Shown: positions 11,405 to 34,510, counted from the stretch's first letter. The stretch: 64,000 nucleotides of DNA from Deltaproteobacteria bacterium RIFCSPHIGHO2_02_FULL_44_16 (GCA_001798185.1 MGRM01000005.1:19925-83924), one strand, 5' to 3'. Numbers and translations: made by a program. Notes: generated by a model not told the origin, from the letters alone.

Positions 11405-12050
11405 TCAAGTTCGTCACCTTTATTGGCGTGAAAGCATGGGGCCATTTTTTGATCGCCTCTTTACACGTTTACGACTGAAGGTACTTCCTCTCGAAGTTCT
11501 CAATACGGTAGTTCCTGCTCAGGGGAAAATAGTTGAGATCGGTTGCGGGCATGGACTCATTTGCAATTATCTCGGTTTAGCAAACCCAGAACGTGAAATC
11601 ATTGGAGTCGATATCGATCCTCGTCGCATGACCATGGCAAAAACAACCTTGAATGGAAGGGAAAATGTTCATTTTCAAGAAGGACGTTTTGAACATTTTC
11701 ATTTTATCAATCTCGACATGGTCATTCTTTTTGGAGTTCTCTGTGTCATTCCGATCCGATATTGGGATGAACTCTTCGCCAATATTCATCGCGCGCTCAA
11801 GCCTGGTGGAGAGTTGCTCCTTCACGATATCCGTGTTGATGATTCAATGCTCTTTCGTCTTCACACCTTCAAAGAAACACTTTTTCGTGTGGTTGGCATT
11901 ACACGAGGTGAAGGAGTGAATGTGATGCCGCCAGATGTTTTGGAAAAGAGAATGATGCAATACGGTTTTACCGTTCGTGCACTTGGGCCCGAACTTGATG
12001 TCCCTTTTCACTCCTGTTTTACATGGCTTCTCACAAAACAATCACACTAA
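11376..12050 (+). CDS. Class I SAM-dependent methyltransferase.
   Basis: VEIGCGHGL (motif I) and LKPGGELLL (post-II) are present. Confidence 0.65.
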   Translation: MTHPLHSIRDQVRHLYWRESMGPFFDRLFTRLRLKVLPLEVLNTVVPAQGKIVEIGCGHGLICNYLGLANPEREIIGVDIDPRRMTMAKTTLNGRENVHFQEGRFEHFHFINLDMVILFGVLCVIPIRYWDELFANIHRALKPGGELLLHDIRVDDSMLFRLHTFKETLFRVVGITRGEGVNVMPPDVLEKRMMQYGFTVRALGPELDVPFHSCFTWLLTKQSH

Positions 12051-13567
12051 GTATCTTTGTGCTCATCCTCCTTCTTGCCTGCGGCTTAGGGTTCATGGCG
12101 GTTTTTGGAAACTTTGATACCAATGAAGGATGGTATGCCAACGATCTCTTTTTGGTCAGTCAAGGAATGCGACCTTACGAAGATTTTTTCTATCATCGGC
12201 TTCCGCTGTTTCTTTATAGTTTTGTCCCTTTTCAGTCATTCATCAGCATTGATTGGATCACGCTGCGAATTTTTTCAGCACTCTTTTTGTGGCTTGCTGC
12301 GTGTGGACTTGTTTGGCTGTTATGGGGACGTGTCCGACCTGCGCTGATCTGTTTGGCTATCGGACTTCTGTGCGTCAATATTCATGGCCTTCACATTTTT
12401 GCGACCGTGCAAGTCTATTCTATCGTGGCCTTTTTCTATATCGTGATACTTCTGGTTGTCGAAAAAGTTCGTACAGCATGGCTTTCTGTTCTTTTTTTTG
12501 CCTGTTTGTGTGTTGTTGCGCAGTGGATGCGTTATCCGATTGATTATCTCCCCTTTGTTTTTTTTCTTTATCTTTTCGTCGTCTTTTGGGGTCGCTGGTC
12601 GTTGATGTTGTTAGGCCTCGTTGTTTACGTGAGCTTGCACGCATTTCTTCTCTCACAGTTTGCTTCGGAGAAATTTTTTCATCACATCATTTTTGGTATG
12701 AATCCTTTTCAATATCTTCAGGGAGAACTTCCGAAGCTCGAGTTTGGATCGATGGCATGGTTGCGTTATAAGTCCGATTGGCTTCTCTCTGGCGTGCGTT
12801 GGTTTTTCCCTCTTTTGCTTTTGGGATTTCCCTTGCTTGTAGTTTTTTTCTCCCGGTACAAGTTTCGTTTTTGGTTGAATCGTTCTTTTCTTGCGAAACA
12901 TCGTGGAGCTTGGCTCGCATTTCTTCTCGTTACCGGAAATACAAGTATGTATCTTCTTGCTCCGGAAGGTCACCCGGTTCAACTCTATTATATTTTCCCT
13001 GTGTTGCTGTATCTTCTGTGTCATCTTCTCGATTGGGGTTTCTCGTTTTCACCTCCAATGCCACGATATGCCTTTTCGACAATGACCTTTGTTCTTGTGT
13101 TGAGTGCCCCTTGGCTGCATGACCGCGATGTTCGTCTCTCTTCCACGGCTCGCGATACTGCAATTGTCGCTCAGATAGCGACAGAGTTAAAAAAACATTG
13201 CTCTGCTGGTGAAGAGCTGCTTACGTTTACTCCGCTCGTGGCCATGGAAAGCTCCATGCGAGTGACTCCTGGACTTGAGTTTGAAACCTTTAGTTATTTT
13301 GATTCATTATCGACGTCAGAAGCAGCACAATATGGATTGATGAATCGTGAATTGTTGGTGCAACGTGTTCAAGAAAAACAACCTTGTGCGATTCACTTGG
13401 ATAACCGATTTCATCAAACTCAAGGAAATGCAGCTCGTTTACGTGCGATGCAAAAGGATTTTTTGCGCACCGTGACATTTCATTATCTTCCGCCTTCTTC
13501 CTTGGCTGAAACAGGATGGGAAGCGTTACGAGGACCAGTCTTCCTCTATTTTCGTCGTGAAAGTTAG
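12023..13567 (+). CDS. Polytopic membrane glycosyltransferase, GT-C fold (PMT/ArnT/GT39/83-like).
   Basis: This is a 514-aa protein with about 11 predicted transmembrane helices and an N-terminal region resembling dolichyl-phosphate-mannose/ArnT-type transferases. It is grouped with the GT2 and YdjC genes. Confidence 0.55.
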   Translation: MASHKTITLSIFVLILLLACGLGFMAVFGNFDTNEGWYANDLFLVSQGMRPYEDFFYHRLPLFLYSFVPFQSFISIDWITLRIFSALFLWLAACGLVWLLWGRVRPALICLAIGLLCVNIHGLHIFATVQVYSIVAFFYIVILLVVEKVRTAWLSVLFFACLCVVAQWMRYPIDYLPFVFFLYLFVVFWGRWSLMLLGLVVYVSLHAFLLSQFASEKFFHHIIFGMNPFQYLQGELPKLEFGSMAWLRYKSDWLLSGVRWFFPLLLLGFPLLVVFFSRYKFRFWLNRSFLAKHRGAWLAFLLVTGNTSMYLLAPEGHPVQLYYIFPVLLYLLCHLLDWGFSFSPPMPRYAFSTMTFVLVLSAPWLHDRDVRLSSTARDTAIVAQIATELKKHCSAGEELLTFTPLVAMESSMRVTPGLEFETFSYFDSLSTSEAAQYGLMNRELLVQRVQEKQPCAIHLDNRFHQTQGNAARLRAMQKDFLRTVTFHYLPPSSLAETGWEALRGPVFLYFRRES

Positions 13568-19969: not shown

Positions 19970-20844
19970 AGAACTTTCTCTGCAAAGGAAAAAAAGGCGA
20001 TCTCATCATGTCCCTCTATATCGTGAAAGCGATGGGGGGAGGGAATGTTTTGATTACCCCGGGAGAATTTGAAGAACCACTTGAGAGTGTTCTCGAATCG
20101 TGCGGCAAGCTTGTATTATCGCAACCCTATGTCCATTCTTTTCGGATCTACAAAGATGAGCCGATCGATATCGATCTCGATGCATTTCGACATCATAAGA
20201 TGCTTTTTCGCACGACACTTCTTGATGTCATGTGTCATGCACAACATCTGCCCTCGCCACAAAATGTTCAAAGTTGGATCGATGTTCCCGGTGATACTTC
20301 ATTTGCAGACAAAATTATTATTCATCGTCGAGCGGTCGTCAAAGCACGTGCGAATCCGCTTTTTGATTGGGATGCTCTTATCTCTCGGTTGGGAGCGAAA
20401 AATTTTCTCTTTGTGTCACGTCTTGAAGGAGAGTGGAAAGAATTTGGTCGCAAAGAAGTAGAATATTATAAACCTGCAGATAACTATGAACATGCTCGTG
20501 TGTTGAAAGGTTCGAAGCTCTATATTGGCAATCAATCCTTCCCTTCTGCCTTGGCTGATGCTCTCGGAGTACGACGCATTTTCGAAGTCATGACCGGCAT
20601 CGACCGACGTCATTTCGCTATCGATTATGCGTCAAATGCCTGGTATTTTGCGACCCCTTGGGATTGCACCCTCAAACATTTTCGTTATCTCGCGAAAGAC
20701 AATGGACATTATGATGATGTGGTGACGGGCGAGTCTGTTCACGTGCCTCTGGAATTTCACTACAATCGGATGCAAACATTACGTCATGAAGCTCACTATT
20801 ATAAATCCCTCCTCAAACAATACGTGAAAGTTCTATGTCTTTAG
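19966..20844 (+). CDS. Hypothetical protein, possibly a GT9 (heptosyltransferase-like) C-terminal domain.
   Basis: LYIGNQSFPSALADALGVRRI weakly resembles the GT9 motif IGNDSGPMHLAAA. The assignment is weak. Confidence 0.35.
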   Translation: MKNFLCKGKKGDLIMSLYIVKAMGGGNVLITPGEFEEPLESVLESCGKLVLSQPYVHSFRIYKDEPIDIDLDAFRHHKMLFRTTLLDVMCHAQHLPSPQNVQSWIDVPGDTSFADKIIIHRRAVVKARANPLFDWDALISRLGAKNFLFVSRLEGEWKEFGRKEVEYYKPADNYEHARVLKGSKLYIGNQSFPSALADALGVRRIFEVMTGIDRRHFAIDYASNAWYFATPWDCTLKHFRYLAKDNGHYDDVVTGESVHVPLEFHYNRMQTLRHEAHYYKSLLKQYVKVLCL

Positions 20845-22202
20845 TGAATAAATCTCTCAGCATTTTTAATCGAGAAATTGTGTTTACCTTTCTCCGGCTC
20901 GGTACCGGAGCCATCGTGGCACGAAAACTTGGCCCGACCGGCATGGGTATTTGGGCAGCGCTTGATTTGATTGTGAATTATTCTCGTGTTTTTGGAGCTC
21001 CTCGTCTCGAAATCGCGACGGTCTATTTTTGGAGCCAAAAACAATGGAACCGAGGAGAAATTCTTTTTACGGTCAATGTCGTCGGTTTTACGATGGGACT
21101 TTTACTCTGCTTTCTTCTTTCCTTTCAGCATGATTTGTTACGAACTTTTTTTGTAAAAACAAATATTGAACCTTTGCTCATGATCCTTGTTTTTGCGCAT
21201 TTGCCTCTGCGTTTTGTAAAAAGGAATTATCATTACTTTCTTTTGGCCCAAGAGGATACGCAATCTTACAATCGTGTTTTGGTGATTGATGATGTCCTGA
21301 AAGCCATGATCACTATAACGCTTTTACTCTTTTTTGATCTCGGTCTTTGGTCCCTTGCGATTGCGATTCATATTTCAAGCGCATGCGCCTTTGTCTATGC
21401 TGCTGTAAAAGTCCGACGAACTCAGCGTATGGTCGTGCACCATAACGTGAAACTTTTTTTTACGATGCTCCGCTTTAGTATGAAAGTGTATGTCTCGGAA
21501 GCGAGCGGTTTTTTAACCATCTATATCTCCAATTTAATTACCGCTCTTTTCCTTGGTCCTGCTCAGCTTGCTTTTTTTTCCATGGGAAAGGGAAAGGCTG
21601 AATGGTTGAATCGTATCACCAATGCGATTGCGACAGTGCTCTATCCGAGAGTTTCACACCTGCAAGGGAGTGGACAGGATGCCTCGATAACCACAACCGA
21701 TGCTTCACGCATCTCCCTTCTCATCTTATCCGTTGCTGCTTTTTTCTTATCCCTTTTCATTTATCCCGCCACGCTTCTTCTCTATGGTCGGGAATTTAGT
21801 CCTTTGGTGATTGTTTTCTTTCTTATTCTACCGGGTTTTATTTTTCATTCGGTCACGAGTCTGCAGCGACAGTATTTTCTTGGAATTGGAAGAGCTGATA
21901 TTCCGATGAAAATCAATATGATACCTCTCATCTTGCAAGCAACACTTTGCTATCTTTTTATTCCCAAAATGGGATTTATGGGGGGAGCCATTGCTGTATC
22001 GCTGACTCATCTGATGATGTCTGCGATCACGGTTATCGTGTATCGTCGCATGACCGGAATTACCTTTTCACAGCTTTTACTCCCTACGCGAAGGGATAGA
22101 GATTATTTGGTCCAGCTCGTGATGACCAAGCTTCAGATTTTCTTCGACATGCTTCGACGAATGTTTGGAAGAGTTCTTCAGAGTCTTTATGAAAAAGTTT
22201 AA
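20835..22202 (+). CDS. wzx: Wzx-type oligosaccharide flippase (MOP superfamily polysaccharide biosynthesis protein).
   Basis: The 455-aa protein has about 12 predicted transmembrane helices and an N-terminus typical of polysaccharide_synt/Wzx proteins. Confidence 0.65.
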   Translation: MSLVNKSLSIFNREIVFTFLRLGTGAIVARKLGPTGMGIWAALDLIVNYSRVFGAPRLEIATVYFWSQKQWNRGEILFTVNVVGFTMGLLLCFLLSFQHDLLRTFFVKTNIEPLLMILVFAHLPLRFVKRNYHYFLLAQEDTQSYNRVLVIDDVLKAMITITLLLFFDLGLWSLAIAIHISSACAFVYAAVKVRRTQRMVVHHNVKLFFTMLRFSMKVYVSEASGFLTIYISNLITALFLGPAQLAFFSMGKGKAEWLNRITNAIATVLYPRVSHLQGSGQDASITTTDASRISLLILSVAAFFLSLFIYPATLLLYGREFSPLVIVFFLILPGFIFHSVTSLQRQYFLGIGRADIPMKINMIPLILQATLCYLFIPKMGFMGGAIAVSLTHLMMSAITVIVYRRMTGITFSQLLLPTRRDRDYLVQLVMTKLQIFFDMLRRMFGRVLQSLYEKV

Positions 22203-24030
22203 AAAAATACTTCGTTCTCTCAAACGTTCTTTTGTGACGGTCTCACGATTTCTCCGATTTGGAGATAGTCATAAGGTTGTTTTTTTTGAAACGCTCTCTT
22301 CCGAAAATAAAACGTTGCCTTCACGAAGAGATGTTCTGCGCTGGATTTCTCCCATTCTCAAAGAGATGGGGAGAACATTTGTGCGAGCTTACCGAGTTGG
22401 ACTTGGAGAAGCGCATACGCTTCATCCCGATCCGCTTTCCACAGCAGGAGGGGAGAGTTATGGAAAATGTCGAATCGGTTTTACGTACAAAAACGCCTTT
22501 TCGCTTTCCCATGCTCCTCAAGGAAGTGTGTCGCTGAATCTTTCAGATGAGGCTGCCGAAGGAATATACTTTTGGGTCGGGAAAAAATTTATTGAAACCG
22601 GTGATGGACTTTTGGATCTTTTTCTTGAAGGAAAAGATTCCACAAAAATTTTTTCAAAAAAATTAAATGCGCTTCATCACGCATGGGATCTTTTTTATTT
22701 TCCTTTAGCCCAAAAGAGCGGCGAATATAAATTCACGTGGAGTACACAAGGGGAGAAGAAGGATCTTTTACTGACTCCCCCTCTGATCAAACGAAAACAG
22801 GAACGAACTGTTCTTCTTCTCATCGCTGATGCTGTGCGACCTCAAGACATCGGGCTTTATTCAGGAGCTGTTCATACACCGATGCTCGATGCCTATTTTT
22901 CATCAGGAGTTCTTTTTCAAAATAGTTTTGCTCAAAGTAATTGGACGCTTCCGGCCTTTGCTTCGATTGCCACTTCTCACTATGCATCAGAACATGGCGT
23001 GGTCGATCCTGATCGCTATTCGCGTCCCATGGATCGACACGTTCCAACCTTAGGGGAAGTGATGCGCGCTCACGGATTTTATACCTATGGCTCTGTATCT
23101 CATTTTCGCAGTAACCAAGCTTATGGGCATCATCGTGGTTTTGAACACTTTGACTATGCAAGTACGATGCAAGAAAAACCGGGAACCACAGGAGTGGCAG
23201 GACAGAATAATATGCATCGTCAACTTCGGGAACTTTGTGCGTATGTTGACAATCTTCGCGGAGTGAATTTTTTTGGAATGATCCACTTTTTTGATACGCA
23301 TTTCCCCTATTTTTATAATCCCTATCAGCTCAACCAGCATGATCTTCTTTTTCAAAATTCTCTGGAATACTCTGTGCGAAAACCATTCACTCAGCAATTT
23401 ACGGAGGAAGAGTATCGGTATATGCTTCATCAGTATTATACGCGTCTTGCAGAGTTGGATGCTGCACTCGCGCAGCTCTTTTATGTTCTTCGAAACAGAG
23501 AGAACGTCACCGTTCTTTTTATGTCCGATCATGGATATTGTTTTGAGAAATCCCTTGGGCATGATTTGTCCTCTGATGAGATTGCAACTCCTCTTTTCAT
23601 AAGCTCCACTGAATTCAAGCTCGAAGGGGGGAAACATCAGCGCGTGACGCAGTCTTCGGTGGATATCCTGCCGACATTGACAACCCTTTTTGGGATTCAT
23701 GATGTAACTGCGCGCGCGGGAACCTCTCTGTTTGATCGCTCAGGAAAAGTTCTCCAGAAAGAAGTGGCAGTGTCAGAGTTGATCTATCATGAACTCTATC
23801 AAGTACGTCTTATTGGAAAAAAAGGAGCAACACTTTTGTTTGAAACCAAACGTTCTCGTAAGAGTGGAACGATTGAAGTTGACCAACTTTTTATCAAGGA
23901 CAATCGTTTTGACTCCCCCTCAGAAACATCTCTTGAAATGTTCCTTGCCTCTGTAGAAAGTTCAAAACTTTTTCCTTCACTCAAAAAGAAAATGTGTGAA
24001 CTGATTCGTTCTGGAGAGAACTTGCAATGA
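22189..24030 (+). CDS. Sulfatase-like (alkaline-phosphatase-superfamily) protein, paralog 1.
   Basis: LLLIADAVRPQDIGLYSG is the sulfatase N-terminal metal-site motif. At the CxPxR position the protein has TLPAF, that is Thr in place of Cys and no Arg. No transmembrane segment is predicted. Confidence 0.65.
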   Translation: MKKFKKILRSLKRSFVTVSRFLRFGDSHKVVFFETLSSENKTLPSRRDVLRWISPILKEMGRTFVRAYRVGLGEAHTLHPDPLSTAGGESYGKCRIGFTYKNAFSLSHAPQGSVSLNLSDEAAEGIYFWVGKKFIETGDGLLDLFLEGKDSTKIFSKKLNALHHAWDLFYFPLAQKSGEYKFTWSTQGEKKDLLLTPPLIKRKQERTVLLLIADAVRPQDIGLYSGAVHTPMLDAYFSSGVLFQNSFAQSNWTLPAFASIATSHYASEHGVVDPDRYSRPMDRHVPTLGEVMRAHGFYTYGSVSHFRSNQAYGHHRGFEHFDYASTMQEKPGTTGVAGQNNMHRQLRELCAYVDNLRGVNFFGMIHFFDTHFPYFYNPYQLNQHDLLFQNSLEYSVRKPFTQQFTEEEYRYMLHQYYTRLAELDAALAQLFYVLRNRENVTVLFMSDHGYCFEKSLGHDLSSDEIATPLFISSTEFKLEGGKHQRVTQSSVDILPTLTTLFGIHDVTARAGTSLFDRSGKVLQKEVAVSELIYHELYQVRLIGKKGATLLFETKRSRKSGTIEVDQLFIKDNRFDSPSETSLEMFLASVESSKLFPSLKKKMCELIRSGENLQ

Positions 24031-25442
24031 CCGATATTCCCCTGTGTGTCGATCTCGATGGGACACTTTTAAAGACTGATACCTTGGTCGAAGGTTTTCT
24101 TGCTTGTCTCAAAAAGAAACCGTTATCGTTGGTGCAAGCTCCATTTTGGTTGTTTAAAGGCAAAGCTGTCCTGAAACGAAAAATCTTTGAAACGATTGAG
24201 CTCAACCCCCATGTGCTTCCTTACCATCTCGATTTTTTAGACTATCTTCACGGAGAATATGAAAAGGGAAGGAAGCTCATTTTAGCAACTGCTGCGCATG
24301 AACGTATTGCAACTTCTATTGCGCAGCATCTCAATATTTTTTCCGAAGTATTTTCGACGAATCACACAAACTTAAAAGGTTCTTCTAAATGTGAAATATT
24401 GGAAAAAAGGTTTGGAAAGAAAAAGTTTGGATATGCAGGAAATGCTCACATTGATCTTTTGGTTTGGAAAGAAGCTGGAGAGGGTATTGTCGTCAACGCA
24501 TCACCTCGGTTATTACAAAAGGCGGAAAAAATGACCTCTGTGGTTAAATTTTTTCCTCAAAAAAGAGGAACTTTTTTGAAAATCTTGAAGGCCATGCGTC
24601 TTTATCAATGGGTGAAAAACTTGCTTGTTTTCATTCCATTGATCTTGGCTCATCGCGTTACAGAGATTTCACTTTTTCAAGATGCTGTGGTTGCATTTTT
24701 TTCTTTTGGACTATGTGCCTCGAGTGTTTATCTTTTAAATGATTTGCTCGATTTGGAAGCAGACCGTCTTCATCCCCGAAAACGGCTTCGTCCTTTTGCT
24801 TCCGGAGAACTGAGCCCTTGGATCGGTATTTTCTTCATTCCGCTTCTTTTGATAACGAGTTTTCTCACTGCGCTCACACTTTCGATCTGGTTTGTCGTTA
24901 CGCTTGGGATTTATTATGTGCTGACACTTTCTTATTCTCTCTATTTGAAACGCATTCCTCTGATCGATGTCGTGTTACTGGCGATGCTTTATACGCTTCG
25001 TTTGATTGCGGGGATTGCGTCAGTGCATGTTCCCATTTCGCCGTGGCTTTTTGCCTTTGCGCTCTTTTTCTTTTTAAGTTTAGCGCTTGTAAAACGATCT
25101 TCGGAATTAACGATGATGCAAAAAGAAAACCTGGAGAGTTCACTTGGTCGTGGCTATCGACCAGATGATTTAGAACTCCTGACCATGATGGGAATCTCCA
25201 GCGGATTTCTTTCGGTTTTGGTTTTGGCGCTCTACATTCACAGTGAAGATGTTTCAGTTTTATATGCGCAGCCAATGTTTCTCTGGCTTATCTGTCCTTT
25301 CTTCCTTTATTGGATCGGACGTATTTGGTTTTTGACGCGAAGAGGAGGAATTCCTGACGATCCCATTCTTTTCGCGGCGAAAGATAAAATAAGCTATGTG
25401 ATTGGGAGTTTTATCTTTTTTATTCTCTATGTGGCATCATGA
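24027..25442 (+). CDS. Fusion of an HAD-like phosphatase domain with a UbiA-family polyprenyl-phosphate phosphoribosyltransferase (DPPR synthase / Rv3806c-like).
   Basis: The N-terminal CVDLDGTLLK is HAD motif I. The C-terminal YQWVKNLLVF...YLLNDLLDLEADRLHPRKRLRP carries the UbiA NDxxDxxxD motif. Confidence 0.75.
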   Translation: MTDIPLCVDLDGTLLKTDTLVEGFLACLKKKPLSLVQAPFWLFKGKAVLKRKIFETIELNPHVLPYHLDFLDYLHGEYEKGRKLILATAAHERIATSIAQHLNIFSEVFSTNHTNLKGSSKCEILEKRFGKKKFGYAGNAHIDLLVWKEAGEGIVVNASPRLLQKAEKMTSVVKFFPQKRGTFLKILKAMRLYQWVKNLLVFIPLILAHRVTEISLFQDAVVAFFSFGLCASSVYLLNDLLDLEADRLHPRKRLRPFASGELSPWIGIFFIPLLLITSFLTALTLSIWFVVTLGIYYVLTLSYSLYLKRIPLIDVVLLAMLYTLRLIAGIASVHVPISPWLFAFALFFFLSLALVKRSSELTMMQKENLESSLGRGYRPDDLELLTMMGISSGFLSVLVLALYIHSEDVSVLYAQPMFLWLICPFFLYWIGRIWFLTRRGGIPDDPILFAAKDKISYVIGSFIFFILYVAS

Positions 25443-26758
25443 AAAATGATTCTGAAGTTCTTGAATCCTGGGGACGCAACCCACAGATTCAGCAATCATC
25501 GACTTCTCTTCATTGGAGAAGTGATATTCACTTTTCTTCAGAGAAGAAGATGTTGCCTTACGGAATGGGGCGAAGTTACGGTGATGTCTGTCTCCATGAA
25601 GGAGGACTTCTTCTGAAGACGAGAGGACTGAATCGTTTTTTAGAGTTCGATGCAGAAGAGGGGAGATTGATCTGCGAAGCAGGTGTCTCTTTTGAGGAGA
25701 TTCTCGATTTTGCTGTTCCTCGAGGGTGGTTTCTTCCGGTAACTCCGGGAACAAAATATGTGACGGTCGGTGGTGCGATTGCAAATGATGTGCATGGCAA
25801 AAACCATCACCGTGCAGGATCATTTGGTTGTCATGTCGTTCGTTTTGAACTGTTGCGTTCTGATGGAACGCACCTTCTTTGTAGTCAGACTGAAAATACT
25901 GATTGGTTTCGGGCCACGGTGGGAGGTTTAGGTCTTACCGGTGTTATTACCTGGGCTGACATTCGTCTCAAAAAAGTTGTCAGTCCCTTTATTCGTCAAG
26001 AAACGGTTCCATTTCGTTGTGTCGATGATTTTTTTGCACTTTCTGCTTCGAGCAATCGCGATTTTGAATACACCGTCGCCTGGATCGATTGTTTGGCGAA
26101 GGGGAAAAATCTTGGACGAGGTATTTTTATTCGTGGAAATCATGCAGAAATGAACTCAACAAAAAAGAATCCAAAGAGAAAAAAACCGACATGGAGTATT
26201 CCATGTCAGATGCCTTCTTTTCTTTTGAATCCATTGACGATCAAAGTTTTCAATGGAATGTATTATTTTTCTCAATGCTGGCGAAAAGATTCAAGGCTTG
26301 TTCACTTTGATCCTTTCTTTTATCCGCTCGATGCCGTGAAATGTTGGAATCGTCTGTACGGCCATCGCGGCTTTTTTCAATACCAGTGTGTTGTCCCTCC
26401 GCAGACAGCGCCAGAAAATATACGGCGTCTTCTCGACAAAGTTTCTCATTCAAAGCAAGCATCCTTCCTTTCCGTGTTGAAACAATTCGGTTCGCTTCCT
26501 TCTCCGGGAATGATGTCCTTTCCCCGAAAAGGAGTGACTCTTGCTATGGATTTTCCCAATCGTGGTATCAAAACTTCTCAACTTCTTCATCAACTGGATG
26601 ATATTGTGCAGAAAGTGGGAGGAGCTGTCTATCCGGCGAAAGATGCCTGTATGTCGCGTACCTCCTTTGCTGCTTATTATCCACGATGGAAAGAGTTTGC
26701 ATCGTATATTGATCCCCAGTTCTCATCCAGTTTCTGGAAAAGAGTGAAAGGTGAATAA
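25439..26758 (+). CDS. dprE1: Decaprenylphosphoryl-beta-D-ribose 2'-oxidase-like FAD oxidoreductase (DprE1 homolog).
   Basis: Conserved blocks GRSYGD, GTKYVTVGGAIANDVHGKNHHRAGSFG, ATVGGLGLTG, FYPLD, WNRLYGHRGFFQYQCVVP and GGAVYPAKD match DprE1 closely. Confidence 0.85.
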   Translation: MKNDSEVLESWGRNPQIQQSSTSLHWRSDIHFSSEKKMLPYGMGRSYGDVCLHEGGLLLKTRGLNRFLEFDAEEGRLICEAGVSFEEILDFAVPRGWFLPVTPGTKYVTVGGAIANDVHGKNHHRAGSFGCHVVRFELLRSDGTHLLCSQTENTDWFRATVGGLGLTGVITWADIRLKKVVSPFIRQETVPFRCVDDFFALSASSNRDFEYTVAWIDCLAKGKNLGRGIFIRGNHAEMNSTKKNPKRKKPTWSIPCQMPSFLLNPLTIKVFNGMYYFSQCWRKDSRLVHFDPFFYPLDAVKCWNRLYGHRGFFQYQCVVPPQTAPENIRRLLDKVSHSKQASFLSVLKQFGSLPSPGMMSFPRKGVTLAMDFPNRGIKTSQLLHQLDDIVQKVGGAVYPAKDACMSRTSFAAYYPRWKEFASYIDPQFSSSFWKRVKGE

Positions 26759-26764
26759 ACTTTC

Positions 26765-26823
26765 GTCATCCCCGCTTACGCGGGGATCTCATGAGATTCC
26801 CGCTTCCTGCATGCGGGAATGAC
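26765..26823. repeat. Double-hairpin palindromic repeat element, family 1, full copy.
   Basis: The sequence is gtcatccccgc-ttac-gcggggat ctcatg agattcccgc-ttcctgcat-gcgggaatgac. It lies intergenic between the dprE1-like and dprE2-like genes. Its ATG (26791) creates a spurious upstream ORF start. Confidence 0.7.
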
Positions 26824-26841
26824 AACCATGCGAGTGCACAT

Positions 26842-27576
26842 ATGAAAAATGTTCTGATTCTTGGCGCAACCTCTGCAATCGCTCACGAAGTAGCGAAGCT
26901 CTATGCTGATGAGCAAGCTCATCTCTTTTTGGTCGCAAGAAATGAATTCAAACTGGAAACAATCGCAAAGGATTTAATAGTACGAGGAGCAAAAGTAACA
27001 TCAGGTGTGGCGAACTTTCACGATTTTTCATCGCATCCAAGACTTCTTGAACAGATAAAAGAAAAACTTGGAAATATCGATGTGGTTCTTCTTGCCTATG
27101 GTTCTTTAGGGAATCAAGCGGAGAGTGAAAAGAATATCTCCGTTGCGCTTCAAGAAATAGAAACCAATTTTTTGACCGCATTTTCTCTGCTCTCTTTACT
27201 TGCTCATATCTTGGAAGCTCAGGGGAGTGGAACTCTTGCCGTGATCTCTTCTGTTGCTGGAGATCGTGGTCGTCAAAGTAATTATATCTATGGAACCGCA
27301 AAGGGGGCGCTCAATATTTTTTTACAGGGTTTGCGTAATCGTCTTTATAAAAAAGGAGTTCATGTGTTGACCATTAAACCCGGTTTTGTCGATACTCCTA
27401 TGACAACGCATCTCAAAAAAGGATTTTTATTTTCTTCTTCTCAAAAAGTGGGAAATGATATTTATAAAGCGATAGAAGAAAAAGAAGACGTCCTGTATAC
27501 TCCTCAATTTTGGAGAGCGATTATGTTTGTGATTCGAAATATTCCGGAAGCTCTTTTTAAAAGGCTCAACCTATGA
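26842..27576 (+). CDS. dprE2: Decaprenylphosphoryl-2-keto-ribose reductase-like SDR (DprE2 homolog).
   Basis: ILGATSAIA, AVISSVAGDRGRQSNYIYGTAKGALNIF and AIMFVIRNIPEALFKRL match DprE2 blocks. The real start is the ATG at 26842; the 26791 ORF start lies inside the repeat. Confidence 0.8.
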   Translation: MKNVLILGATSAIAHEVAKLYADEQAHLFLVARNEFKLETIAKDLIVRGAKVTSGVANFHDFSSHPRLLEQIKEKLGNIDVVLLAYGSLGNQAESEKNISVALQEIETNFLTAFSLLSLLAHILEAQGSGTLAVISSVAGDRGRQSNYIYGTAKGALNIFLQGLRNRLYKKGVHVLTIKPGFVDTPMTTHLKKGFLFSSSQKVGNDIYKAIEEKEDVLYTPQFWRAIMFVIRNIPEALFKRLNL

Positions 27577-29780
27577 AAAATTTTTTTCTCCTTCTCTTCG
27601 TTCTGATTTCTGCCTGCAAAATAAGTTGCGCCGCCAATTTTACAGATGAATCTCTTTCTGAAAATAGCCAATCTTCCAGCCAACCTTCTGAGGTCGATGG
27701 GCAAAAATGTTTTTATTATCGTGATCAGGACCTTGATAGGTATGGCGATCCCCTGTCTGTGCTTGAAAATTGTTTTCCTCCTTCGGGTTATGTTGAAAAT
27801 GCGGATGACTGTGACGATAATGATGCTCAAGTGTTTCCAAAGCTTTGGTATTTAGATGCTGATGGCGATAGCTATGGAAATCCGTCACAAACGCTCAGAA
27901 GTTGTAATCCTCCCTTAAAGTATGTGCAAAATGCTACGGACTGCGATGATGCCGATGCTGCTATATCACCCAAAACTATTTGGTACGCTGATAAAGATGC
28001 GGATGGATTTCTGGGAAGAACGATTTCGTGCGCAAAACCAGAATCTTTTGTCCCTCAACTTGTTTTCATTCCAGAAGAGAGTATTGACTGTGATGATACG
28101 AAGAATGCAGTTTATCCGGGAGCGTTTGAATATATCGATCACATTGACCAAAACTGTGACGGAAAAATAAGAACTCTTTATTTAAAAGATATTTCTCCTG
28201 ACCATGTTTTTCATGGTGCTGAAAGAGGAGATAATACAGGTTTTGATCTTGCAGCAGGAGATTTTGATGGAGATGGATACGATGATATGTTGATCAGCGC
28301 TGTCTTTGCGGGATCTGACCTGAAAGGAAAAATTTATCTCATCTATGGAAAGCCTTCTCTGATACTTGATCAAGCTGATGCAACCCTTGTCGGAGAATTT
28401 TCAAATGATCATGCCGGTCAGTTTCTCTCCACATCTGGCGATGTGAATGCCGATGGTTGTGTCGATTTTCTGATTGGTGTTCCTGAATATTCAGATACCA
28501 TTCTGCAACGAGGGAAAACGTATCTCATTTATGGAAGTGGAGCCCGTTGTGCTTTTCCCCAACGATTAACAGGAACGAATAGTCTGACGTCTGTGGGCGC
28601 CGTCGGTGGAATTTCGGGCGCTACTTTTCTTGGAGTCAACAGAGAAGATTACAGCGGAGCAGATATTGCATCAGCGGGAGATATTGATGGAGATGGAAAG
28701 GACGATCTCCTTATTGGCGCGTATGGAGCAGATGCAACGGCGAATGCTTCCGGAAAGGTCTATCTTGTTTATGGAAAAGCGTTAAACGATGTGACCTGTA
28801 TGGATGGAACAAATCCCCATCAGATGAATCTGTCGATCCTGGAAACAGCGGCTGATGCACATTGTGGCCATGAGATTCTTGGCGAGGGAGGAGGAAGTCT
28901 CTTTGGAATTACATTAGCAGGAGTAGGGGATGTGAATCAAAATGGAACCGATGATCTCTTTATCGGTGCTTATGGTTTTAATCCGGATCCAAATCAGACC
29001 CAACCCGCGTACCAATATCAAGGAAAAGCTTACCTTTTTGATTTTGGAATCCTCGGAACGCCTGCAGGACAAAATATTCCGAGACGAATTTTTGCGAGCA
29101 CCGATACGAAGGCTTATTTTGGTGGATTTGCTTTGACTGGCTTAGATGATTGGCGTTCCTGTGCGAGTACTATTTCTGCTTTAGGAGATACGGATGGGGA
29201 CAGCGCCAATGACTTTATGCTGGGATGCTATGCGCTTGATAATCGAACCATTCAGATGCCGGATTCAGGCGGTGTGTATGTGATGTATGGTGGTGAGTAC
29301 ACGGGTGATATAGCGTCCGATGCTCTTTTTCTTCTTGGCACAGAGGATAATGGACAGCTTGCCCAGGAAAATCTTGCCTCTGGAGGAAATGTCAATCGTG
29401 ATGCTTTCGCTGATATTCTCATTGGTGCTTCGAGAGTGAACGGAGGGACATGGCCTGGAAAGTATGAAGCGGGAAAAACCTATTTGATCCTTGGCCGGAG
29501 CCGTGTTGATTTCGCAGCCGCGTATACGAATCAATTTTTAGATAATGTTGATCTCACCTTCAGAGAAGTCGGAGGGTTCGAATTTCTTGGGGAAGAGAGA
29601 TATGACGAAAGTGGTGCTGGTTTGGCAAGCGGTGATTTTGATGGCGATGGAGATACAGATATTCTCATCGGTGCTCCTGGGGATGAAGTGAATAAACTGT
29701 ATAAACATCAGAATTTTGAATCTCAGGCAAATCCACCGCGACCTGGAAAGGTTTATTTTGTTGAATCCAGGTATGAATAA
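27573..29780 (+). CDS. FG-GAP repeat lipoprotein with N-terminal cysteine-containing CDD repeats.
   Basis: A lipobox (LISAC) is followed by three DCDDxDAxxxP repeats. Multiple FG-GAP/Ca-binding DxDGDG motifs follow (DFDGDGYDDMLIS, DIDGDGKDDLLIGA, DFDGDGDTDILIGAPG). It overlaps the dprE2-like gene in an ATGA junction. Confidence 0.7.
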   Translation: MKNFFLLLFVLISACKISCAANFTDESLSENSQSSSQPSEVDGQKCFYYRDQDLDRYGDPLSVLENCFPPSGYVENADDCDDNDAQVFPKLWYLDADGDSYGNPSQTLRSCNPPLKYVQNATDCDDADAAISPKTIWYADKDADGFLGRTISCAKPESFVPQLVFIPEESIDCDDTKNAVYPGAFEYIDHIDQNCDGKIRTLYLKDISPDHVFHGAERGDNTGFDLAAGDFDGDGYDDMLISAVFAGSDLKGKIYLIYGKPSLILDQADATLVGEFSNDHAGQFLSTSGDVNADGCVDFLIGVPEYSDTILQRGKTYLIYGSGARCAFPQRLTGTNSLTSVGAVGGISGATFLGVNREDYSGADIASAGDIDGDGKDDLLIGAYGADATANASGKVYLVYGKALNDVTCMDGTNPHQMNLSILETAADAHCGHEILGEGGGSLFGITLAGVGDVNQNGTDDLFIGAYGFNPDPNQTQPAYQYQGKAYLFDFGILGTPAGQNIPRRIFASTDTKAYFGGFALTGLDDWRSCASTISALGDTDGDSANDFMLGCYALDNRTIQMPDSGGVYVMYGGEYTGDIASDALFLLGTEDNGQLAQENLASGGNVNRDAFADILIGASRVNGGTWPGKYEAGKTYLILGRSRVDFAAAYTNQFLDNVDLTFREVGGFEFLGEERYDESGAGLASGDFDGDGDTDILIGAPGDEVNKLYKHQNFESQANPPRPGKVYFVESRYE

Positions 29781-30648
29781 ACCTTCAGTGTTAGTCTCCA
29801 TTCTGGCTTATAATCATTTCGATGATTTAATAGAAACGATTCGATGCTTGAAGGCTCAATCCTACAAAGATTTTCATCTTCAGGTGATTGATAACGCATC
29901 CACTGATAATATCGTCCCGAGATTAAAAGAAATCTATTCTGATATTGATGTGATTCAACTGACAAAAAACAGAGGATATACCGGTGGAAACAATGTTGCG
30001 CTCGAAAAAGGTTTTCAACAAGGATATGAATATACCTTCATTCTCAACGATGATATTTCGGTTGAAGTCAATTTTCTCGCGCATCTTATAGAGACGGCAA
30101 AAAGCGATGTTGATTGTGGAGTTGTGGGCGTTATTGAAGAAGATTTTTATACAGGAAAAATAAGAACAATCGGGGGAAGTTCATTTCATTTTCGAAGGGC
30201 GCGAGGGCAATGGTTGAAAGATATTCCAAAATTAGCATCGAACTCTTTACAGGTGGATTATGTTCAAGGCGCTGCTCTTCTGTTTACTGCACGTGCTTTA
30301 GCGCAAGGAATTCGATTTGATGAAAAACTTTTTATGTACTGTGAAGAGATCGATTTGGGATTTCAACTGCGTGAAAAGAAACTCAAAGCTCTTGTGGATC
30401 TGAGAACTCGAGTACGACATAAATCAGTTCCCGGGAAATGGAATTCTTTTCAAGCGTATTATCTTCAACGCAATCGGCTCTATTTATGTCGCAAGTATGG
30501 TTCGCGTGCGATTTTTTTTCAGGCCTGTTGTTATATGTGCTTTATTGAGTTGCCGCTAAAGATGGTGTTGAGAACGCTTCAGGGTCATCCTCGTTTTGCG
30601 TGGGCTTGCGTTCGAGGATGTAAAGCCGCTGTAGAAAATAATATATGA
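29773..30648 (+). CDS. GT2 family glycosyltransferase.
   Basis: VSILAYNHFDDLIETIRCLKAQSYKDF...VIDNASTD is a GT-A signature. Confidence 0.75.
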   Translation: MNKPSVLVSILAYNHFDDLIETIRCLKAQSYKDFHLQVIDNASTDNIVPRLKEIYSDIDVIQLTKNRGYTGGNNVALEKGFQQGYEYTFILNDDISVEVNFLAHLIETAKSDVDCGVVGVIEEDFYTGKIRTIGGSSFHFRRARGQWLKDIPKLASNSLQVDYVQGAALLFTARALAQGIRFDEKLFMYCEEIDLGFQLREKKLKALVDLRTRVRHKSVPGKWNSFQAYYLQRNRLYLCRKYGSRAIFFQACCYMCFIELPLKMVLRTLQGHPRFAWACVRGCKAAVENNI

Positions 30649-32060
30649 TGAAGACACAACATGCAATTCGGATACATCCTGCGGTATTTGTTTATGTATT
30701 AGCGTTTGTTTCTCCATTTGCGATTTATGGAATTGGTATCGGTGAAGTTGGTTTTACGCCGATCAATTTTTTGAGTATTCTTTTTTTTCCTGCTTTTCTG
30801 ATGTTCTTTTTATTTAAGAATTGGTCATTAAAAAATTTAACTCTCGTGGGAGTTCTTCATCTTGCATATTTTGTTTTTGCATTTCTTGCTTCTGCATTTG
30901 CGACGAAACATATGGCAGCTGTCAGAGGGTCCGTTGGATATCTAATTGATTTTTTTCTCTGTTACCTTTTTGCCGTTTATTTTATTCAAGAAGAAAAACA
31001 GATTCGAACGGTTCTGAAAATATTTATTTTTGTAGGCGCTGTGAATGCCGTCATGGGACTCGTACAATTTGGTGGATTTTTCTTTTTTGGAGAAATGATT
31101 GCTCCTCCTTTTGTTCATTTCTTTCATGAAGAAGTCTCTACGAAAAATTTTGGCTATGGAACAGGCCTCTTCTCTATTGCTGGATTTATGAAGATGTATG
31201 GATTTTTAGGAGCAGGCTCTGATGCTTTTGGGGGATACACGCTCATTTCTCTCGCTTTTTCGATGTACTTTTTCCAAAGAAAAAAGAATTTTTTCTACGC
31301 TTTTCTTATCGTATTTTTTGGAATCACTTTATTGCTCAGTTGTGCGCGTAACGCGTATGTGGGAACACTTTTCTTTTTTCTTTTCCTCTATTTTTTTTAC
31401 CGTCCTCTCAAGGAAAAAATATTTCAACGCATCTTCAAGGTCTTTAGCCTCGTTTTCATTGTTATTTTTCTTGTGGGGGGGGGTTATATCACACAGAACA
31501 TGAAGGCCTTTGAAAGCGCAGAAATTCAGGTTTCAGCCACTTCTGCATATAAAACGCCAATTTTTTTACTTCAAAGAGTGAATCCTTTTGCTTCTGCGAG
31601 CTTTCAAATCTCTCTGGTCGATTTTTTTTGGGGACATCTCAAATATGCACTTGTTCATGGTTTTGATAATTTTGGTTTAGGGATGGGATTGCAAAATTTT
31701 GATGACTATGTCTCTGCAATCTATGGAGTGAAATATGGATCTCATTCAGACTTTATTTTGACGCTTGGAGGAAGTGGTTATATTGGGCTCCTGATTCAAA
31801 TGTTGATCATTTTTTGTACCATACGCTATGGTCTTAAGGCCTACTATCAACAGCCTCGTGAAAATATAGATTCTCTTCCACTCTTTTTAACAGCATTATT
31901 TGTGGGAATGGTAGCGATTGGAATCGTCAGAACGTTTTACTTCGTTCCCTATAATTTTCTTATCATCGGATTGATTGTCAGATTGTATACGATAAAAGCG
32001 AATGAGTATCGAGAAGCTGGCGCTATACAATCCTACAACAAAAAGAAAAACGGAAAATGA
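30645..32060 (+). CDS. O-antigen ligase / Wzy-type polymerase family membrane protein.
   Basis: The 471-aa protein has about 10-12 predicted transmembrane helices and a Wzy_C-like central region. Confidence 0.5.
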   Translation: MMKTQHAIRIHPAVFVYVLAFVSPFAIYGIGIGEVGFTPINFLSILFFPAFLMFFLFKNWSLKNLTLVGVLHLAYFVFAFLASAFATKHMAAVRGSVGYLIDFFLCYLFAVYFIQEEKQIRTVLKIFIFVGAVNAVMGLVQFGGFFFFGEMIAPPFVHFFHEEVSTKNFGYGTGLFSIAGFMKMYGFLGAGSDAFGGYTLISLAFSMYFFQRKKNFFYAFLIVFFGITLLLSCARNAYVGTLFFFLFLYFFYRPLKEKIFQRIFKVFSLVFIVIFLVGGGYITQNMKAFESAEIQVSATSAYKTPIFLLQRVNPFASASFQISLVDFFWGHLKYALVHGFDNFGLGMGLQNFDDYVSAIYGVKYGSHSDFILTLGGSGYIGLLIQMLIIFCTIRYGLKAYYQQPRENIDSLPLFLTALFVGMVAIGIVRTFYFVPYNFLIIGLIVRLYTIKANEYREAGAIQSYNKKKNGK

Positions 32061-33221
32061 TGCCATGTTTGTCGAGAGTGGGATATGGTGAAATAAAAAA
32101 GGAAGCCAGATGACAAGACAATGAATTGTCAGAAGAGATATTTTTTCTTTTTTCCCAAAACGTAAAGAAGGAGCCAGTAAAAAAGGAAGAGCGATCCAAA
32201 AAAGAGGCCAACCATAGGCCATGAGGCGAAAACCTCCGGGTCCCAAAACAGGACCAAGAATGAATGAAAAGAATCCGTAGAAAAAAAGAATAAAAAATCC
32301 AAGAGGCATTTTTCGAAGGGCGTGAGAACGTAAGAAAAAAAGAAGAAAAAGCGGCCCAATACCAAAAACTGTCAGCAATGATATCAATGTGTGCAGAGGT
32401 TGCGAAAAATCAAAACCACAAAAACCGATGTTTTGAATTTTTCCAAAAGTGAGCCAAGCAGGAAGAGTTTTTGTAAAAGAAGGTGAACAGTAATCGAGTG
32501 TATTGGTCCAGATATTGAGTCCTAAAAAATTACCGCAAAAATTAAAAATCATTTTTGCAGGGATATAAAAGAGATTTGAAAGCTGGTGTTTGTTCGGAAG
32601 TCCATGATGGCTCAAATATCCCGAGAGCAGCATGCTTCCGAGCGAAATAAAAATGGTGGTTGCAGCTAAAGTCCACCGCTTGTGAAAGAAAAAACAAGCT
32701 GTCAAAACCAACGAAAGAAGAAGTGTTGCTTCTCGTGTGAGAAAGAGAGGGATGAGAAGCAAGAGCGCAAGAGAGTACTTTTTCTTTACGAGCAAGAAAG
32801 AAAAAAAAGCAACTTCAACGCCGTAAAAAAGATCATGCAATTCGTAATCATAAAACATTTGACTGAGAGCCGGTGTCAGGAGGAGAGGGATGGCCGTCCA
32901 TGCCGGCAAATCTGCTTGCTTTATGAAGTAGGTCAGAAGAAAACAAAAGAAAAAGAGGTTGATCAAAGCAATAAAAAAAAATGATTTCCAAAGCTCAAGG
33001 GAAGTCAGTGCTGAAAATGCTTTTACGAAATAGGGATGAAGAATTCTTTTATTAAAAGGTTGGGGAACATCTGATATTTCCCCCTTTGCGATATGCGTAT
33101 AATATTTTCCGTCAGGCATTTTATAGATTGGATTGATGTGAGGAAGTTTATTCCATGAAACAAGAAACGTCGCCAAAAATAGAGTGAAAGAGATGAATCC
33201 TATTGATGCAAGCCTTTTCAT
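31896..33221 (-). CDS. Polytopic membrane protein, possibly a GT-C fold glycosyltransferase that uses a polyprenyl-phosphate sugar donor.
   Basis: This is a 441-aa ORF with about 11 hydrophobic helices and an acidic YDYELHD motif after the first helices. It is the only minus-strand gene in this part of the locus. Its 3' end overlaps the convergent gene by 165 bp. Confidence 0.5.
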   Translation of the reverse strand: MKRLASIGFISFTLFLATFLVSWNKLPHINPIYKMPDGKYYTHIAKGEISDVPQPFNKRILHPYFVKAFSALTSLELWKSFFFIALINLFFFCFLLTYFIKQADLPAWTAIPLLLTPALSQMFYDYELHDLFYGVEVAFFSFLLVKKKYSLALLLLIPLFLTREATLLLSLVLTACFFFHKRWTLAATTIFISLGSMLLSGYLSHHGLPNKHQLSNLFYIPAKMIFNFCGNFLGLNIWTNTLDYCSPSFTKTLPAWLTFGKIQNIGFCGFDFSQPLHTLISLLTVFGIGPLFLLFFLRSHALRKMPLGFFILFFYGFFSFILGPVLGPGGFRLMAYGWPLFWIALPFLLAPSLRFGKKEKISLLTIHCLVIWLPFLFHHIPLSTNMASFSVFLFVVGLYSASFSILIRFYRIQSDNQSDDKKIIGNEVKRSDDSNRYHSHK

Positions 33222-33306: not shown

Positions 33307-34500
33307 ATGAAAATACTCCTCCTTACTTCTGGTATTCTCCCCGACACGCACAGTGGTATTGCAAAAGTCGCCTATTATACAGGACGAGAATTGTGTGAGA
33401 GTGGCCATCAGGTGGTTGTTTTAACACGGCGTTATAAGGAGCATCATGCAGTCACTGAGGAAATCAACGGAATGCATTATTATCGTATTCCTTATCCCGA
33501 TCGATGGGGAGTTTTTCATGTGACGTGGCCTCTGGTTGCTGCCGTCAAATCATGGATATGGCAAAAGCGGATTCACCGCATTCATCCGGATGTGGATGCG
33601 GTCTGGATTTTGAACCCATGGTGGACGTTGTTGCTCAACCCTCGTAAACTTTGGCCCCGTGCAAAGCTTATCTGTCAATTTTATGGGAATCCGTATGATG
33701 AAATCACCGCAAATAATGGCAAGACGTTCAAAGCTCGTCTTTTTGCACGACTCTACATGGCGGTTTCAAAACAGTGTATGCGTCTCTCTCATTATGTGGC
33801 GATGCCAAGTCAATTTGCCTATGATGACGCTGTTGCCATGATGGGGGCAAATGCCCAAAAAAAATTAGTTCTTATTCCGCATGGTGTGGACGTTGATTGT
33901 TATCGGACTGCATCGTCAGAGGAAAAACAGGATTTAAAGAAAAAACTTCAGTTGCCACATGACAGGCCCATCTTTATAACAGCTCGAGGGCTTAAACGTC
34001 GAACGGGAGTGGATAAACTCATTACCGCTGCATCTCTTTTAAAAAAAGAGGGATTCCTCTTTTATCTTGTGGTGATTGGAAAGGGCCCCATGAAAGAAGC
34101 CATTCAACAACAGATTCAGGCTCTGCGTCTCGACGATTCCGTAACATTGTTAAGTGATCTTTCCGAAGAAAAACTTGCAGCGTATTATCGAGCGAGTGAT
34201 GTTTTTGTCCTTCCCACACAAGCAGCTGAGGCTTTCGGGCTTGCAACGATTGAAGCCATTGCAGCAGGGCTTGTTGCGTTTGGCACGAACAATGGCGCAA
34301 CTCCAGAAATCCTCAACCGTTATCAGCCGGAATGGATTATTCCGGGAAGTGATGAAAAAAGTATTTATCATAAAATGAAAGAATTTTGTCGGGATCCGCA
34401 AAAGTTTACGATCCCTTATGAGGATATGAAAGCGATCACGGCCAAACATTATAGTTGGACAAGTGCAGCAAAGAAATTTGCTCATACTTGTTCCCATTGA
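33307..34500 (+). CDS. GT4 (GT-B) family glycosyltransferase.
   Basis: The C-terminal EAFGLATIEAIAAGLVAFGTNNGATPEIL is a GT1/GT4 donor-binding motif. Confidence 0.75.
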   Translation: MKILLLTSGILPDTHSGIAKVAYYTGRELCESGHQVVVLTRRYKEHHAVTEEINGMHYYRIPYPDRWGVFHVTWPLVAAVKSWIWQKRIHRIHPDVDAVWILNPWWTLLLNPRKLWPRAKLICQFYGNPYDEITANNGKTFKARLFARLYMAVSKQCMRLSHYVAMPSQFAYDDAVAMMGANAQKKLVLIPHGVDVDCYRTASSEEKQDLKKKLQLPHDRPIFITARGLKRRTGVDKLITAASLLKKEGFLFYLVVIGKGPMKEAIQQQIQALRLDDSVTLLSDLSEEKLAAYYRASDVFVLPTQAAEAFGLATIEAIAAGLVAFGTNNGATPEILNRYQPEWIIPGSDEKSIYHKMKEFCRDPQKFTIPYEDMKAITAKHYSWTSAAKKFAHTCSH

Positions 34501-34510
34501 AATAAACAAA

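Follow-up and report, generated by a model that had tools for sequence, protein, structure and literature searches.

Within a 64,000-nucleotide stretch of DNA from Deltaproteobacteria bacterium RIFCSPHIGHO2_02_FULL_44_16 (GCA_001798185.1, MGRM01000005.1:19925-83924; hereafter the window), we analyzed a gene at 24027..25442 (+) encoding a HAD-type phosphatase domain fused to a UbiA-type membrane domain. We found that the fusion protein is an ordinary further example of a known, curated and experimentally characterized enzyme type, poorly annotated, and that it occurs in the commonest genomic arrangement of its family. It likely works in two steps at the cytoplasmic face of the membrane, making a lipid-linked pentofuranose donor that feeds a DprE1/DprE2-like arabinofuranose pathway. 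This reading draws on what the window shows of the gene's sequence, its motifs, the predicted fold and the order of its neighbors, and on Citrobacter youngae ORF15, for which both activities have been shown. The architecture, the mechanism and the association with DprE1/DprE2-type genes were already published and the family is curated, which leaves little discovery value. The practical value lies in annotation: in place of names such as 'hypothetical', '4-hydroxybenzoate polyprenyltransferase/phosphoserine phosphatase' and 'UbiA family prenyltransferase', our results point to a 5-phosphoribosyl 1-pyrophosphate (PRPP)-dependent polyprenyl-phosphoribose synthase/5-phosphatase.

The fusion protein matches a curated two-domain family end to end

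The open reading frame (ORF) begins with ATG and encodes 471 amino acids, and ATGA start/stop overlaps tie it to both its upstream and its downstream neighbor. The position of the Shine-Dalgarno sequence (Table 1) favors this start over the 439-residue start call of one homologue (P0001). An identical 471-residue protein, OGQ23320.1 from Deltaproteobacteria bacterium RIFCSPLOWO2_02_FULL_44_10, is labeled 'hypothetical protein' in GenBank. The NCBIfam model NF006088 (PRK08238), a 482-position equivalog named 'UbiA family prenyltransferase', spans both domains and was matched from end to end, residues 2-471 aligning to profile positions 10-480 with 623.2 bits against a cutoff of 351. The name of the model is silent on the HAD domain and on the PRPP-dependent reaction. 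When the first 182 residues were searched alone, they still scored 196.6 bits (E 6e-58) over positions 10-189 of NF006088, which places the N-terminal domain far beyond chance within the curated two-domain family. Pfam UbiA was matched at residues 217-439 (E 4e-20). An AlphaFold 2 (AF2) model of the fusion protein, built on the homologue alignment, reached a predicted local distance difference test (pLDDT) value of 91.7 and a predicted template modeling score (pTM) of 0.85. A first-pass annotation of the window had placed a HAD-UbiA fusion at these same coordinates, with an N-terminal CVDLDGTLLK carrying a DxDGT motif I; the ORF, the motifs, the NF006088 match and the model bear out the fusion, and the peptide is found at residues 7-16.

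Motifs and predicted folds of the two domains

Conservation was counted in the motif columns of an alignment of the fusion protein with 40 homologues at 48-55% identity (41 sequences). All four HAD motifs are present (Table 1). The motif I residue Asp9 was found in 40 of 40 homologues having the region and Asp11 in 41 of 41, with Gly-Thr next to it. At the motif II position 88, 39 sequences carry Thr and 2 carry Ser. Lys121 of motif III is invariant (41/41), together with Asn115 and Gly118, as is Asp143 of motif IV (41/41), while position 139 (24441..24443) is Asn in 35 sequences and Asp in 6. The first-pass annotation had called for motifs II-IV to be confirmed; all are present and conserved across the 41 sequences, and the N-terminal region is neither short of motifs nor a non-catalytic linker. 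The AF2 model contains strands at residues 6-8, 84-91, 107-111, 135-138, 152-158 and 172-177, with the cap helices inserted after motif I. It places motif I after the first strand, Thr88 on strand 84-91, Lys121 at the start of a helix and motif IV after strand 135-138; in this predicted structure each motif is at the canonical place of the HAD fold. Foldseek comparison of the N-terminal part with the Protein Data Bank (PDB) returned Methanocaldococcus jannaschii phosphoserine phosphatase (1f5s/1l7p, E 3e-4, template modeling (TM) score 0.58), along with 3fvv and other HAD hydrolases (E range 3e-4 to 3e-3).

The C-terminal domain carries an Asp-rich motif and a second-loop motif (Table 1) whose residues Asn238, Asp239, Asp242, Asp246, Arg247, Lys356, Arg357 and Glu360 are invariant in the 41 sequences. 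A phmmer search against PDB sequences matched residues 185-425 to 8j8j, the Mycobacterium tuberculosis decaprenyl-phosphate phosphoribosyltransferase (E 6e-27), and Foldseek aligned the C-terminal part to the same structure (E 7.5e-10, TM 0.82). The NCBIfam equivalogs for synthases of decaprenylphosphoryl-5-phosphoribose (DPPR), NF008977 and NF008978, ranked next after NF006088 and remained below cutoff, with 153.1 bits against 234 and 148.1 against 207. The UbiA domain is a homologue of the Rv3806c type with the same fold, outside the actinobacterial equivalog. A Lys/Arg-rich segment at residues 178-198, with the HAD domain directly before the first membrane helix, would put the HAD domain on the cytoplasmic side.

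Table 1. Positions of the fusion gene, its motifs and the neighboring genes discussed here, counted from the first letter of the window.
Feature	Position	Strand	Description
Shine-Dalgarno sequence	24013..24018	+	GGAGAG, 8 nt 5' of the fusion-gene ATG
Fusion gene	24027..25442	+	N-terminal HAD-type phosphoribose 5-phosphatase and C-terminal UbiA-type polyprenyl-phosphate phosphoribosyltransferase (predicted bifunctional)
HAD-fold domain	24027..24560	+	Residues 1-178; four-helix C1-type cap (helices 19-79)
HAD motif I	24051-24065	+	D9-L-D11-G-T
HAD motif II	24288-24290	+	T88
HAD motif III	24387-24389	+	K121
HAD motif IV	24438-24455	+	G138-N139-x3-D143
UbiA-fold membrane domain	24570..25439	+	Residues 182-471; phosphoribosyltransferase type
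Asp-rich motif	24738-24767	+	N238-D239-x2-D242-x3-D246-R247
Second-loop motif	25092-25106	+	K356-R357-x2-E360
DprE1-like FAD-dependent oxidase	25439..26758	+	439 aa; start overlaps fusion-gene stop
DprE2-like short-chain dehydrogenase/reductase	26791..27576	+	261 aa
Wzx/MOP-family polytopic protein	20835..22202	+	Two genes upstream of the fusion gene, same operon; Pfam Polysacc_synt_3, Polysacc_synt, MurJ
Second Wzx/MOP-type protein	43934..45433
Polytopic membrane protein	31896..33221	-	441 aa; no Pfam family; predicted GT-C-like fold
Polytopic protein	12023..13567		No Pfam family
Polytopic protein	30645..32060	+	No Pfam family

The fusion resembles ORF15 of Citrobacter youngae

The closest characterized counterpart is ORF15 of C. 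youngae O1 (AWU66546.1). Kelly, Duong, Nothof, Lowary and Whitfield (PNAS 2024; PMC11127046) described it as a HAD phosphoribose phosphatase (PRP) at the N-terminus joined to a UbiA-type polyprenyl phosphoribofuranose synthase (PPPRS) at the C-terminus. Membranes containing ORF15 converted farnesyl phosphate and PRPP to farnesyl-P-ribofuranose, as determined by mass spectrometry and nuclear magnetic resonance, and the D18A variant accumulated farnesyl-P-ribose-5-P in vitro, while the N247A, D248A, D251A and D255A variants were inactive or nearly so (PMC11127046). Both proteins consist of a HAD phosphatase with a helical cap followed by a nine-helix UbiA-type phosphoribosyltransferase, and both are encoded in a glycan locus, at the first step of a system for adding pentofuranose outside the cytoplasm. 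Residues D18, N247, D248, D251, D255, R366 and E369 of ORF15 correspond to D9, N238, D239, D242, D246, R357 and E360 of the window protein; the constant offset of 9 indicates that the two are collinear relatives. They differ in what follows. The ORF15 product is used as ribofuranose (O1) or is made into xylofuranose by a single epimerase of the short-chain dehydrogenase/reductase (SDR) family (O2), whereas in the window a DprE1/DprE2-like pair follows the fusion gene, from which arabinofuranose is predicted. ORF15 is also accompanied by a small ArnEF/EmrE-like transporter and by a GT136 glycosyltransferase of the GT-C fold with a carbohydrate-binding module, neither of which was found in the window.

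The mycobacterial route follows the same logic. Rv3806c (DPPR synthase, 8j8j) shares the membrane fold and the Asp-rich motifs, and Rv3806c, Rv3807c, DprE1 and DprE2 together lead from PRPP to lipid-P-ribose-5-P, then through dephosphorylation to 2'-epimerization by an oxidase using flavin adenine dinucleotide (FAD) and an SDR reductase. In contrast to the fusion protein, Rv3806c lacks a HAD domain; its separate phosphatase is described as unrelated to the HAD family, and the mycobacterial and Pseudomonas aeruginosa enzymes without a HAD domain both need such a separate, structurally unrelated phosphatase (PMC11127046). The lipid would probably differ as well, undecaprenyl rather than decaprenyl phosphate being expected. 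Outside actinobacteria, the rhizobial noeCHOP/noeCNHOP Nod-factor operon and the P. aeruginosa PA7/Pa5196 pilin genes also use a route of the Rv3806c/DprE1/DprE2 type to lipid-linked D-arabinofuranose (PMC5080398, PMC11127046). They differ from the window in that the phosphatase is reported to be encoded separately (in IRBG74 by noeN, and in P. aeruginosa as a protein of its own) and in their acceptors, which are Nod factors or pilin. According to the 2024 study, candidate arabinofuranose-glycan systems carry DprE1/DprE2 homologues, and ORF15-like systems are widespread, also in species whose glycans are unknown (PMC11127046). Another paper (PMC10412643) mentions DprE1 merely as a drug target.

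A DprE1/DprE2-like pair follows the fusion gene

The downstream oxidase matched the DprE1 model NF053785 over nearly its full length (E 5.9e-110, 368.5 bits against a cutoff of 500) and contains Pfam FAD_binding_4. The reductase passed the cutoff of NF005489 (310 bits against 267) and matched the DprE2 model NF053786, also over nearly its full length (E 2.9e-56, 190.9 bits against 250). PAP2 (PF01569) was matched by none of the 59 non-overlapping ORFs in a Pfam scan of the 64-kb window, and a motif search of the same window found no ORF carrying the three PAP2 motifs together. The first-pass annotation had reported the lack of a PAP2 gene, which holds within the window. It had also proposed that the HAD domain replaces an Rv3807c-type phosphatase within one polypeptide. 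This is supported by the intact motifs, the confident model of a HAD fold, the DprE1/DprE2-like genes downstream, the lack of PAP2 in the window and the ORF15 biochemistry, in particular the D18A variant. Its functional reading of the gene was thus sustained; its view that a HAD+UbiA fusion is not a described architecture was contradicted by NF006088, by the at least 585 species genomes reported below and by the 2024 biochemistry (PMC11127046).

The pathway that we infer would run in four steps, and the inference extends to the activities of the fusion protein, its lipid, the arabinose made at the end, and the flippase, transferase and acceptor involved. First, the UbiA-type domain would move ribose-5-phosphate from PRPP onto polyprenyl phosphate at the cytoplasmic face, giving polyprenyl-P-ribose-5-P. 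Second, the HAD domain would take off the 5-phosphate with Asp9 as the nucleophile, Asp11, Thr88, Lys121, Asn139 and Asp143 completing the Mg2+/phosphate site. Third, the DprE1-like oxidase together with the DprE2-like reductase, both translationally coupled, would invert C2 and yield polyprenyl-P-arabinofuranose. Fourth, after flipping, the donor would serve a GT-C-type transferase outside the cytoplasm, which would decorate the glycan of the surrounding 60-kb locus. The first two steps are suggested by family membership and published biochemistry, and the third by homology and conserved gene order.

The fusion is widespread and usually precedes a DprE1/DprE2-like pair

A protein search with the fusion protein returned at least 7,943 proteins at E <= 1e-5. 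Both Pfam domains were recorded in 110 of the 120 best matches, many of which carry the Joint Genome Institute (JGI) name '4-hydroxybenzoate polyprenyltransferase/phosphoserine phosphatase'. Among the 10 without a recorded HAD match, 8 are of similar length (476-502 aa), and in these the domain is probably present but below threshold, as in the window protein; the others are P0001, with its short 439-residue start call, and P0044 (793 aa). With one genome per species, at least 585 species genomes encode a relative, and the 80 best are all nearly full length. These genomes include Verrucomicrobiota, Bacteroidota, Acidobacteriota, Nitrospirota, Alpha-, Beta- and Gammaproteobacteria, Saccharibacteria and others, with Pseudomonas, Xanthomonas, Stenotrophomonas, Paraburkholderia and Mesorhizobium among the proteobacterial genera. 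A plasmid collection contained 104 matching records, of which 81 were nearly full length, under the name 'UbiA family prenyltransferase' given by the Prokaryotic Genome Annotation Pipeline (PGAP). A Rhizobium sp. N324 operon, for example, consists of a UbiA-family gene, GtrA, an FAD-binding oxidoreductase, an SDR and two large hypothetical proteins. A phage collection yielded one partial match, covering the UbiA part only, and the phage example of Kelly et al. was not recovered from it.

Gene neighborhoods were compared among the 80 best loci of the species-genome scan, within the fetched flanks. By tblastn, a DprE1-like gene was found in 63 of the 80 loci and a DprE2-like gene in 59, nearly always directly downstream of the fusion and in the same order as in the window; several of the remaining loci are on short contigs. 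The trio of synthase, DprE1 and DprE2 is the commonest arrangement of the HAD-UbiA family in these loci across many phyla, which suggests that, outside actinobacteria, lipid-linked D-arabinofuranose donors are far commoner than one would gather from the handful of cases studied. Near the trio, two further genes recur: an amine-oxidase-like flavoprotein in 15 loci and an epimerase/dehydratase dependent on nicotinamide adenine dinucleotide in 31 (e.g. L027 4895..6190 and L058 6776..7813). Their recurrence hints that many lineages modify the pentose further.

Alternative explanations

Several points weigh against the arabinofuranose pathway proposed here, and we consider them together with the alternatives on which some of them bear. 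The source is an uncultured groundwater metagenome-assembled genome (MAG), and the function of the fusion protein is a prediction. The correspondence with ORF15 rests on residue numbering (PMC11127046) and on shared Stenotrophomonas, Xanthomonas and Pseudomonas relatives. Across six frames of the 64-kb window, we found no ORF of 70-220 aa with at least 3 hydrophobic segments that could encode a small transporter of the GtrA/SMR/ArnEF type, and the GT-C assignment of the candidate transferase described in the next section is weak. The DprE1-like and DprE2-like scores are below the cutoffs of NCBIfam equivalogs built on actinobacterial enzymes. The HAD domain is divergent: Pfam PF12710 was matched at residues 9-111 (E 3.4e-5) with 24.8 bits, slightly under the gathering score of 27, and a profile of the N-terminal domain found no chain among PDB sequences at E <= 1, so that the family model, the motifs and the predicted fold, rather than sequence similarity to a solved phosphatase, underlie the HAD assignment. 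In motif IV, the first Asp usual in HAD phosphatases is replaced by Asn139, and Asn stands at this position in 35 of the 41 family members. Finally, ORF15 D18A was not fully inactive, some activity being left in vivo (PMC11127046).

The scores below the equivalog cutoffs (368 bits against 500 for the DprE1-like and 191 against 250 for the DprE2-like protein) would fit a case in which the fusion works as described and the final donor is something other than arabinofuranose. The product could be another pentofuranose or a keto intermediate, or the oxidase and the SDR could act on a different substrate, in which case the sugar added by the locus would be ribofuranose or a different epimer. There is precedent in C. 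youngae, where the ribosyl lipid is used as such in O1, while in O2 a different SDR epimerase serves to make xylofuranose, and 17 of the 80 related loci lack such a pair in the fetched flanks, several of them on short contigs. We nevertheless consider this outcome improbable, as the alignments to the DprE1 and DprE2 models are near full length (E 6e-110 and 3e-56), the oxidase and reductase are arranged as they are in most related loci, and the published systems with such pairs are those of arabinofuranose-containing glycans.

The features of the HAD domain listed above bear on a second alternative, in which the domain is catalytically dead or serves a structural or regulatory role, for example in holding an oligomer together, and an unlinked phosphatase elsewhere in the genome dephosphorylates the lipid. 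Asn139, the Pfam score under the gathering threshold and the residual in vivo activity of ORF15 D18A would all fit, as would the finding that deletion of noeN, the candidate phosphatase of Rhizobium sp. IRBG74, merely reduces arabinosylation (PMC5080398); moreover, only a 64-kb window of the genome is in view. However, Asp9, Asp11, Thr88, Lys121 and Asp143 are invariant or nearly so across phyla, which is unexpected for a dead domain, position 139 is Asp in 6 of 41 members, which implies that Asn and Asp are interchangeable there, and ORF15 D18A accumulates the 5-phosphorylated lipid in vitro. On this evidence a dead domain seems to us very improbable.

The automatic names would make the protein a 4-hydroxybenzoate polyprenyltransferase-type enzyme with a phosphoserine-type phosphatase in a quinone or other prenylated-aromatic pathway, a reading that the JGI names of homologues and the proximity of the HAD fold to phosphoserine phosphatases would suit, but which was already disfavored and to which we give almost no credence, since UbiA/4-hydroxybenzoate aromatic prenyltransferase models scored about 31 bits against cutoffs of 275, the DPPR synthase models and 8j8j were far better matches, the gene lies between glycan genes and DprE1/DprE2-like genes, and ORF15 uses PRPP and polyprenyl phosphate.

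Candidates for export and transfer of the donor

For the later steps of the arabinofuranose pathway, we looked for flippase and transferase genes. The only flippase-like proteins of the window are the two of Wzx/MOP type. The one encoded two genes upstream, which has weak MurJ/MATE matches in NCBIfam, is of the sole type that might supply a flippase close to the fusion gene, and this role is an inference only. In related loci, a GtrA gene was found in 12 and an SMR/EamA-like gene in 6. A separate observation concerns genes with the MprF-type flippase domain LPG_synthase_TM (PF03706), which occur in 18 of the 80 related loci and not in the window. In about 10 of them (L004, L008, L011, L030, L037, L045, L050, L051, L070 and L076) such a gene is immediately upstream of the HAD-UbiA gene, and in the 793-residue Methylomonas paludis protein P0044 the domain is fused to a UbiA-type protein. 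LPG_synthase_TM may represent a third type of flippase for lipid-linked pentose.

The 441-residue polytopic protein is a weak candidate for a transferase using the lipid-linked pentose. Its AF2 model (pLDDT 74, pTM 0.74) retrieved GT-C enzymes as all of its top 11 Foldseek matches in the PDB (PimE, PglB, STT3, ArnT, ALG3/9), at E values of only 0.07-0.6, and its first loop has a conserved acidic residue. The family is rare: a search of 5.8 billion proteins gave just 7 relatives at E <= 1e-3. In one Terriglobia MAG (L046), a homologue is encoded immediately upstream of the fusion gene, while three other homologues (P0123, P0125 and P0126) have unrelated neighborhoods, so that linkage was seen in 1 of 4 other contexts. 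A more far-reaching reading, which we consider rather unlikely, is that the known synthase module feeds a Wzx/MOP-type flippase in place of a GtrA/SMR-type one, and this rare, Pfam-less, GT-C-like protein acting as a new arabinofuranosyltransferase; the acceptor could then be the polysaccharide of the locus or an FG-GAP lipoprotein (see below). The gene at 31896..33221 (-) converges with the Pfam-less polytopic gene at 30645..32060 (+), the two overlapping by 165 bp. Searches of Pfam, NCBIfam and PDB sequences gave nothing usable for the proteins at 12023..13567 and 30645..32060, the latter having just a weak IctB/O-antigen-ligase-like match.

Other features of the glycan locus

According to the Pfam scan of the 59 ORFs, the window is one packed glycan-biosynthesis locus of about 60 kb. 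It contains NeuB, a CMP-sugar synthetase, genes for the synthesis of 3'-phosphoadenosine 5'-phosphosulfate and a sulfotransferase, as well as two GDP-mannose dehydratase-like genes, rml genes, several GT2/GT4 enzymes and methyltransferases. Two Wzx-like proteins, Wzz, Wzi and an initiating sugar transferase are also encoded.

A 735-residue FG-GAP repeat protein is encoded at 27573..29780 (+), its start overlapping the DprE2-like stop codon. It has a lipoprotein-like N-terminus (…LISAC) and metal-binding motifs resembling those of MopE, and could be a target or partner of glycosylation. On the upstream side of the fusion gene, a gene for a 621-residue protein of the sulfatase/alkaline-phosphatase superfamily (22165..24030 (+)) runs into the fusion-gene start codon; this protein has a 654-residue paralogue at 34463..36427 (+). 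A simple hydropathy scan found no hydrophobic segment in either; they could be sulfatases, or could transfer or remove phospho-substituents. The sub-cluster at 36424..38926 (+) encodes a CDP-alcohol phosphatidyltransferase-like membrane protein, a dehydrogenase resembling glyceraldehyde-3-phosphate dehydrogenase and a stand-alone HAD_2 hydrolase, which is the only other HAD protein of the window. Finally, the 724-residue protein encoded at 3405..5579 (+) carries PUA_2 and ATP-sulfurylase domains in addition to a pyruvate kinase barrel (residues 6-313, E 1.5e-69), a fusion of which we know of no other instance, and is followed by genes for adenosine 5'-phosphosulfate kinase and sulfotransferase.

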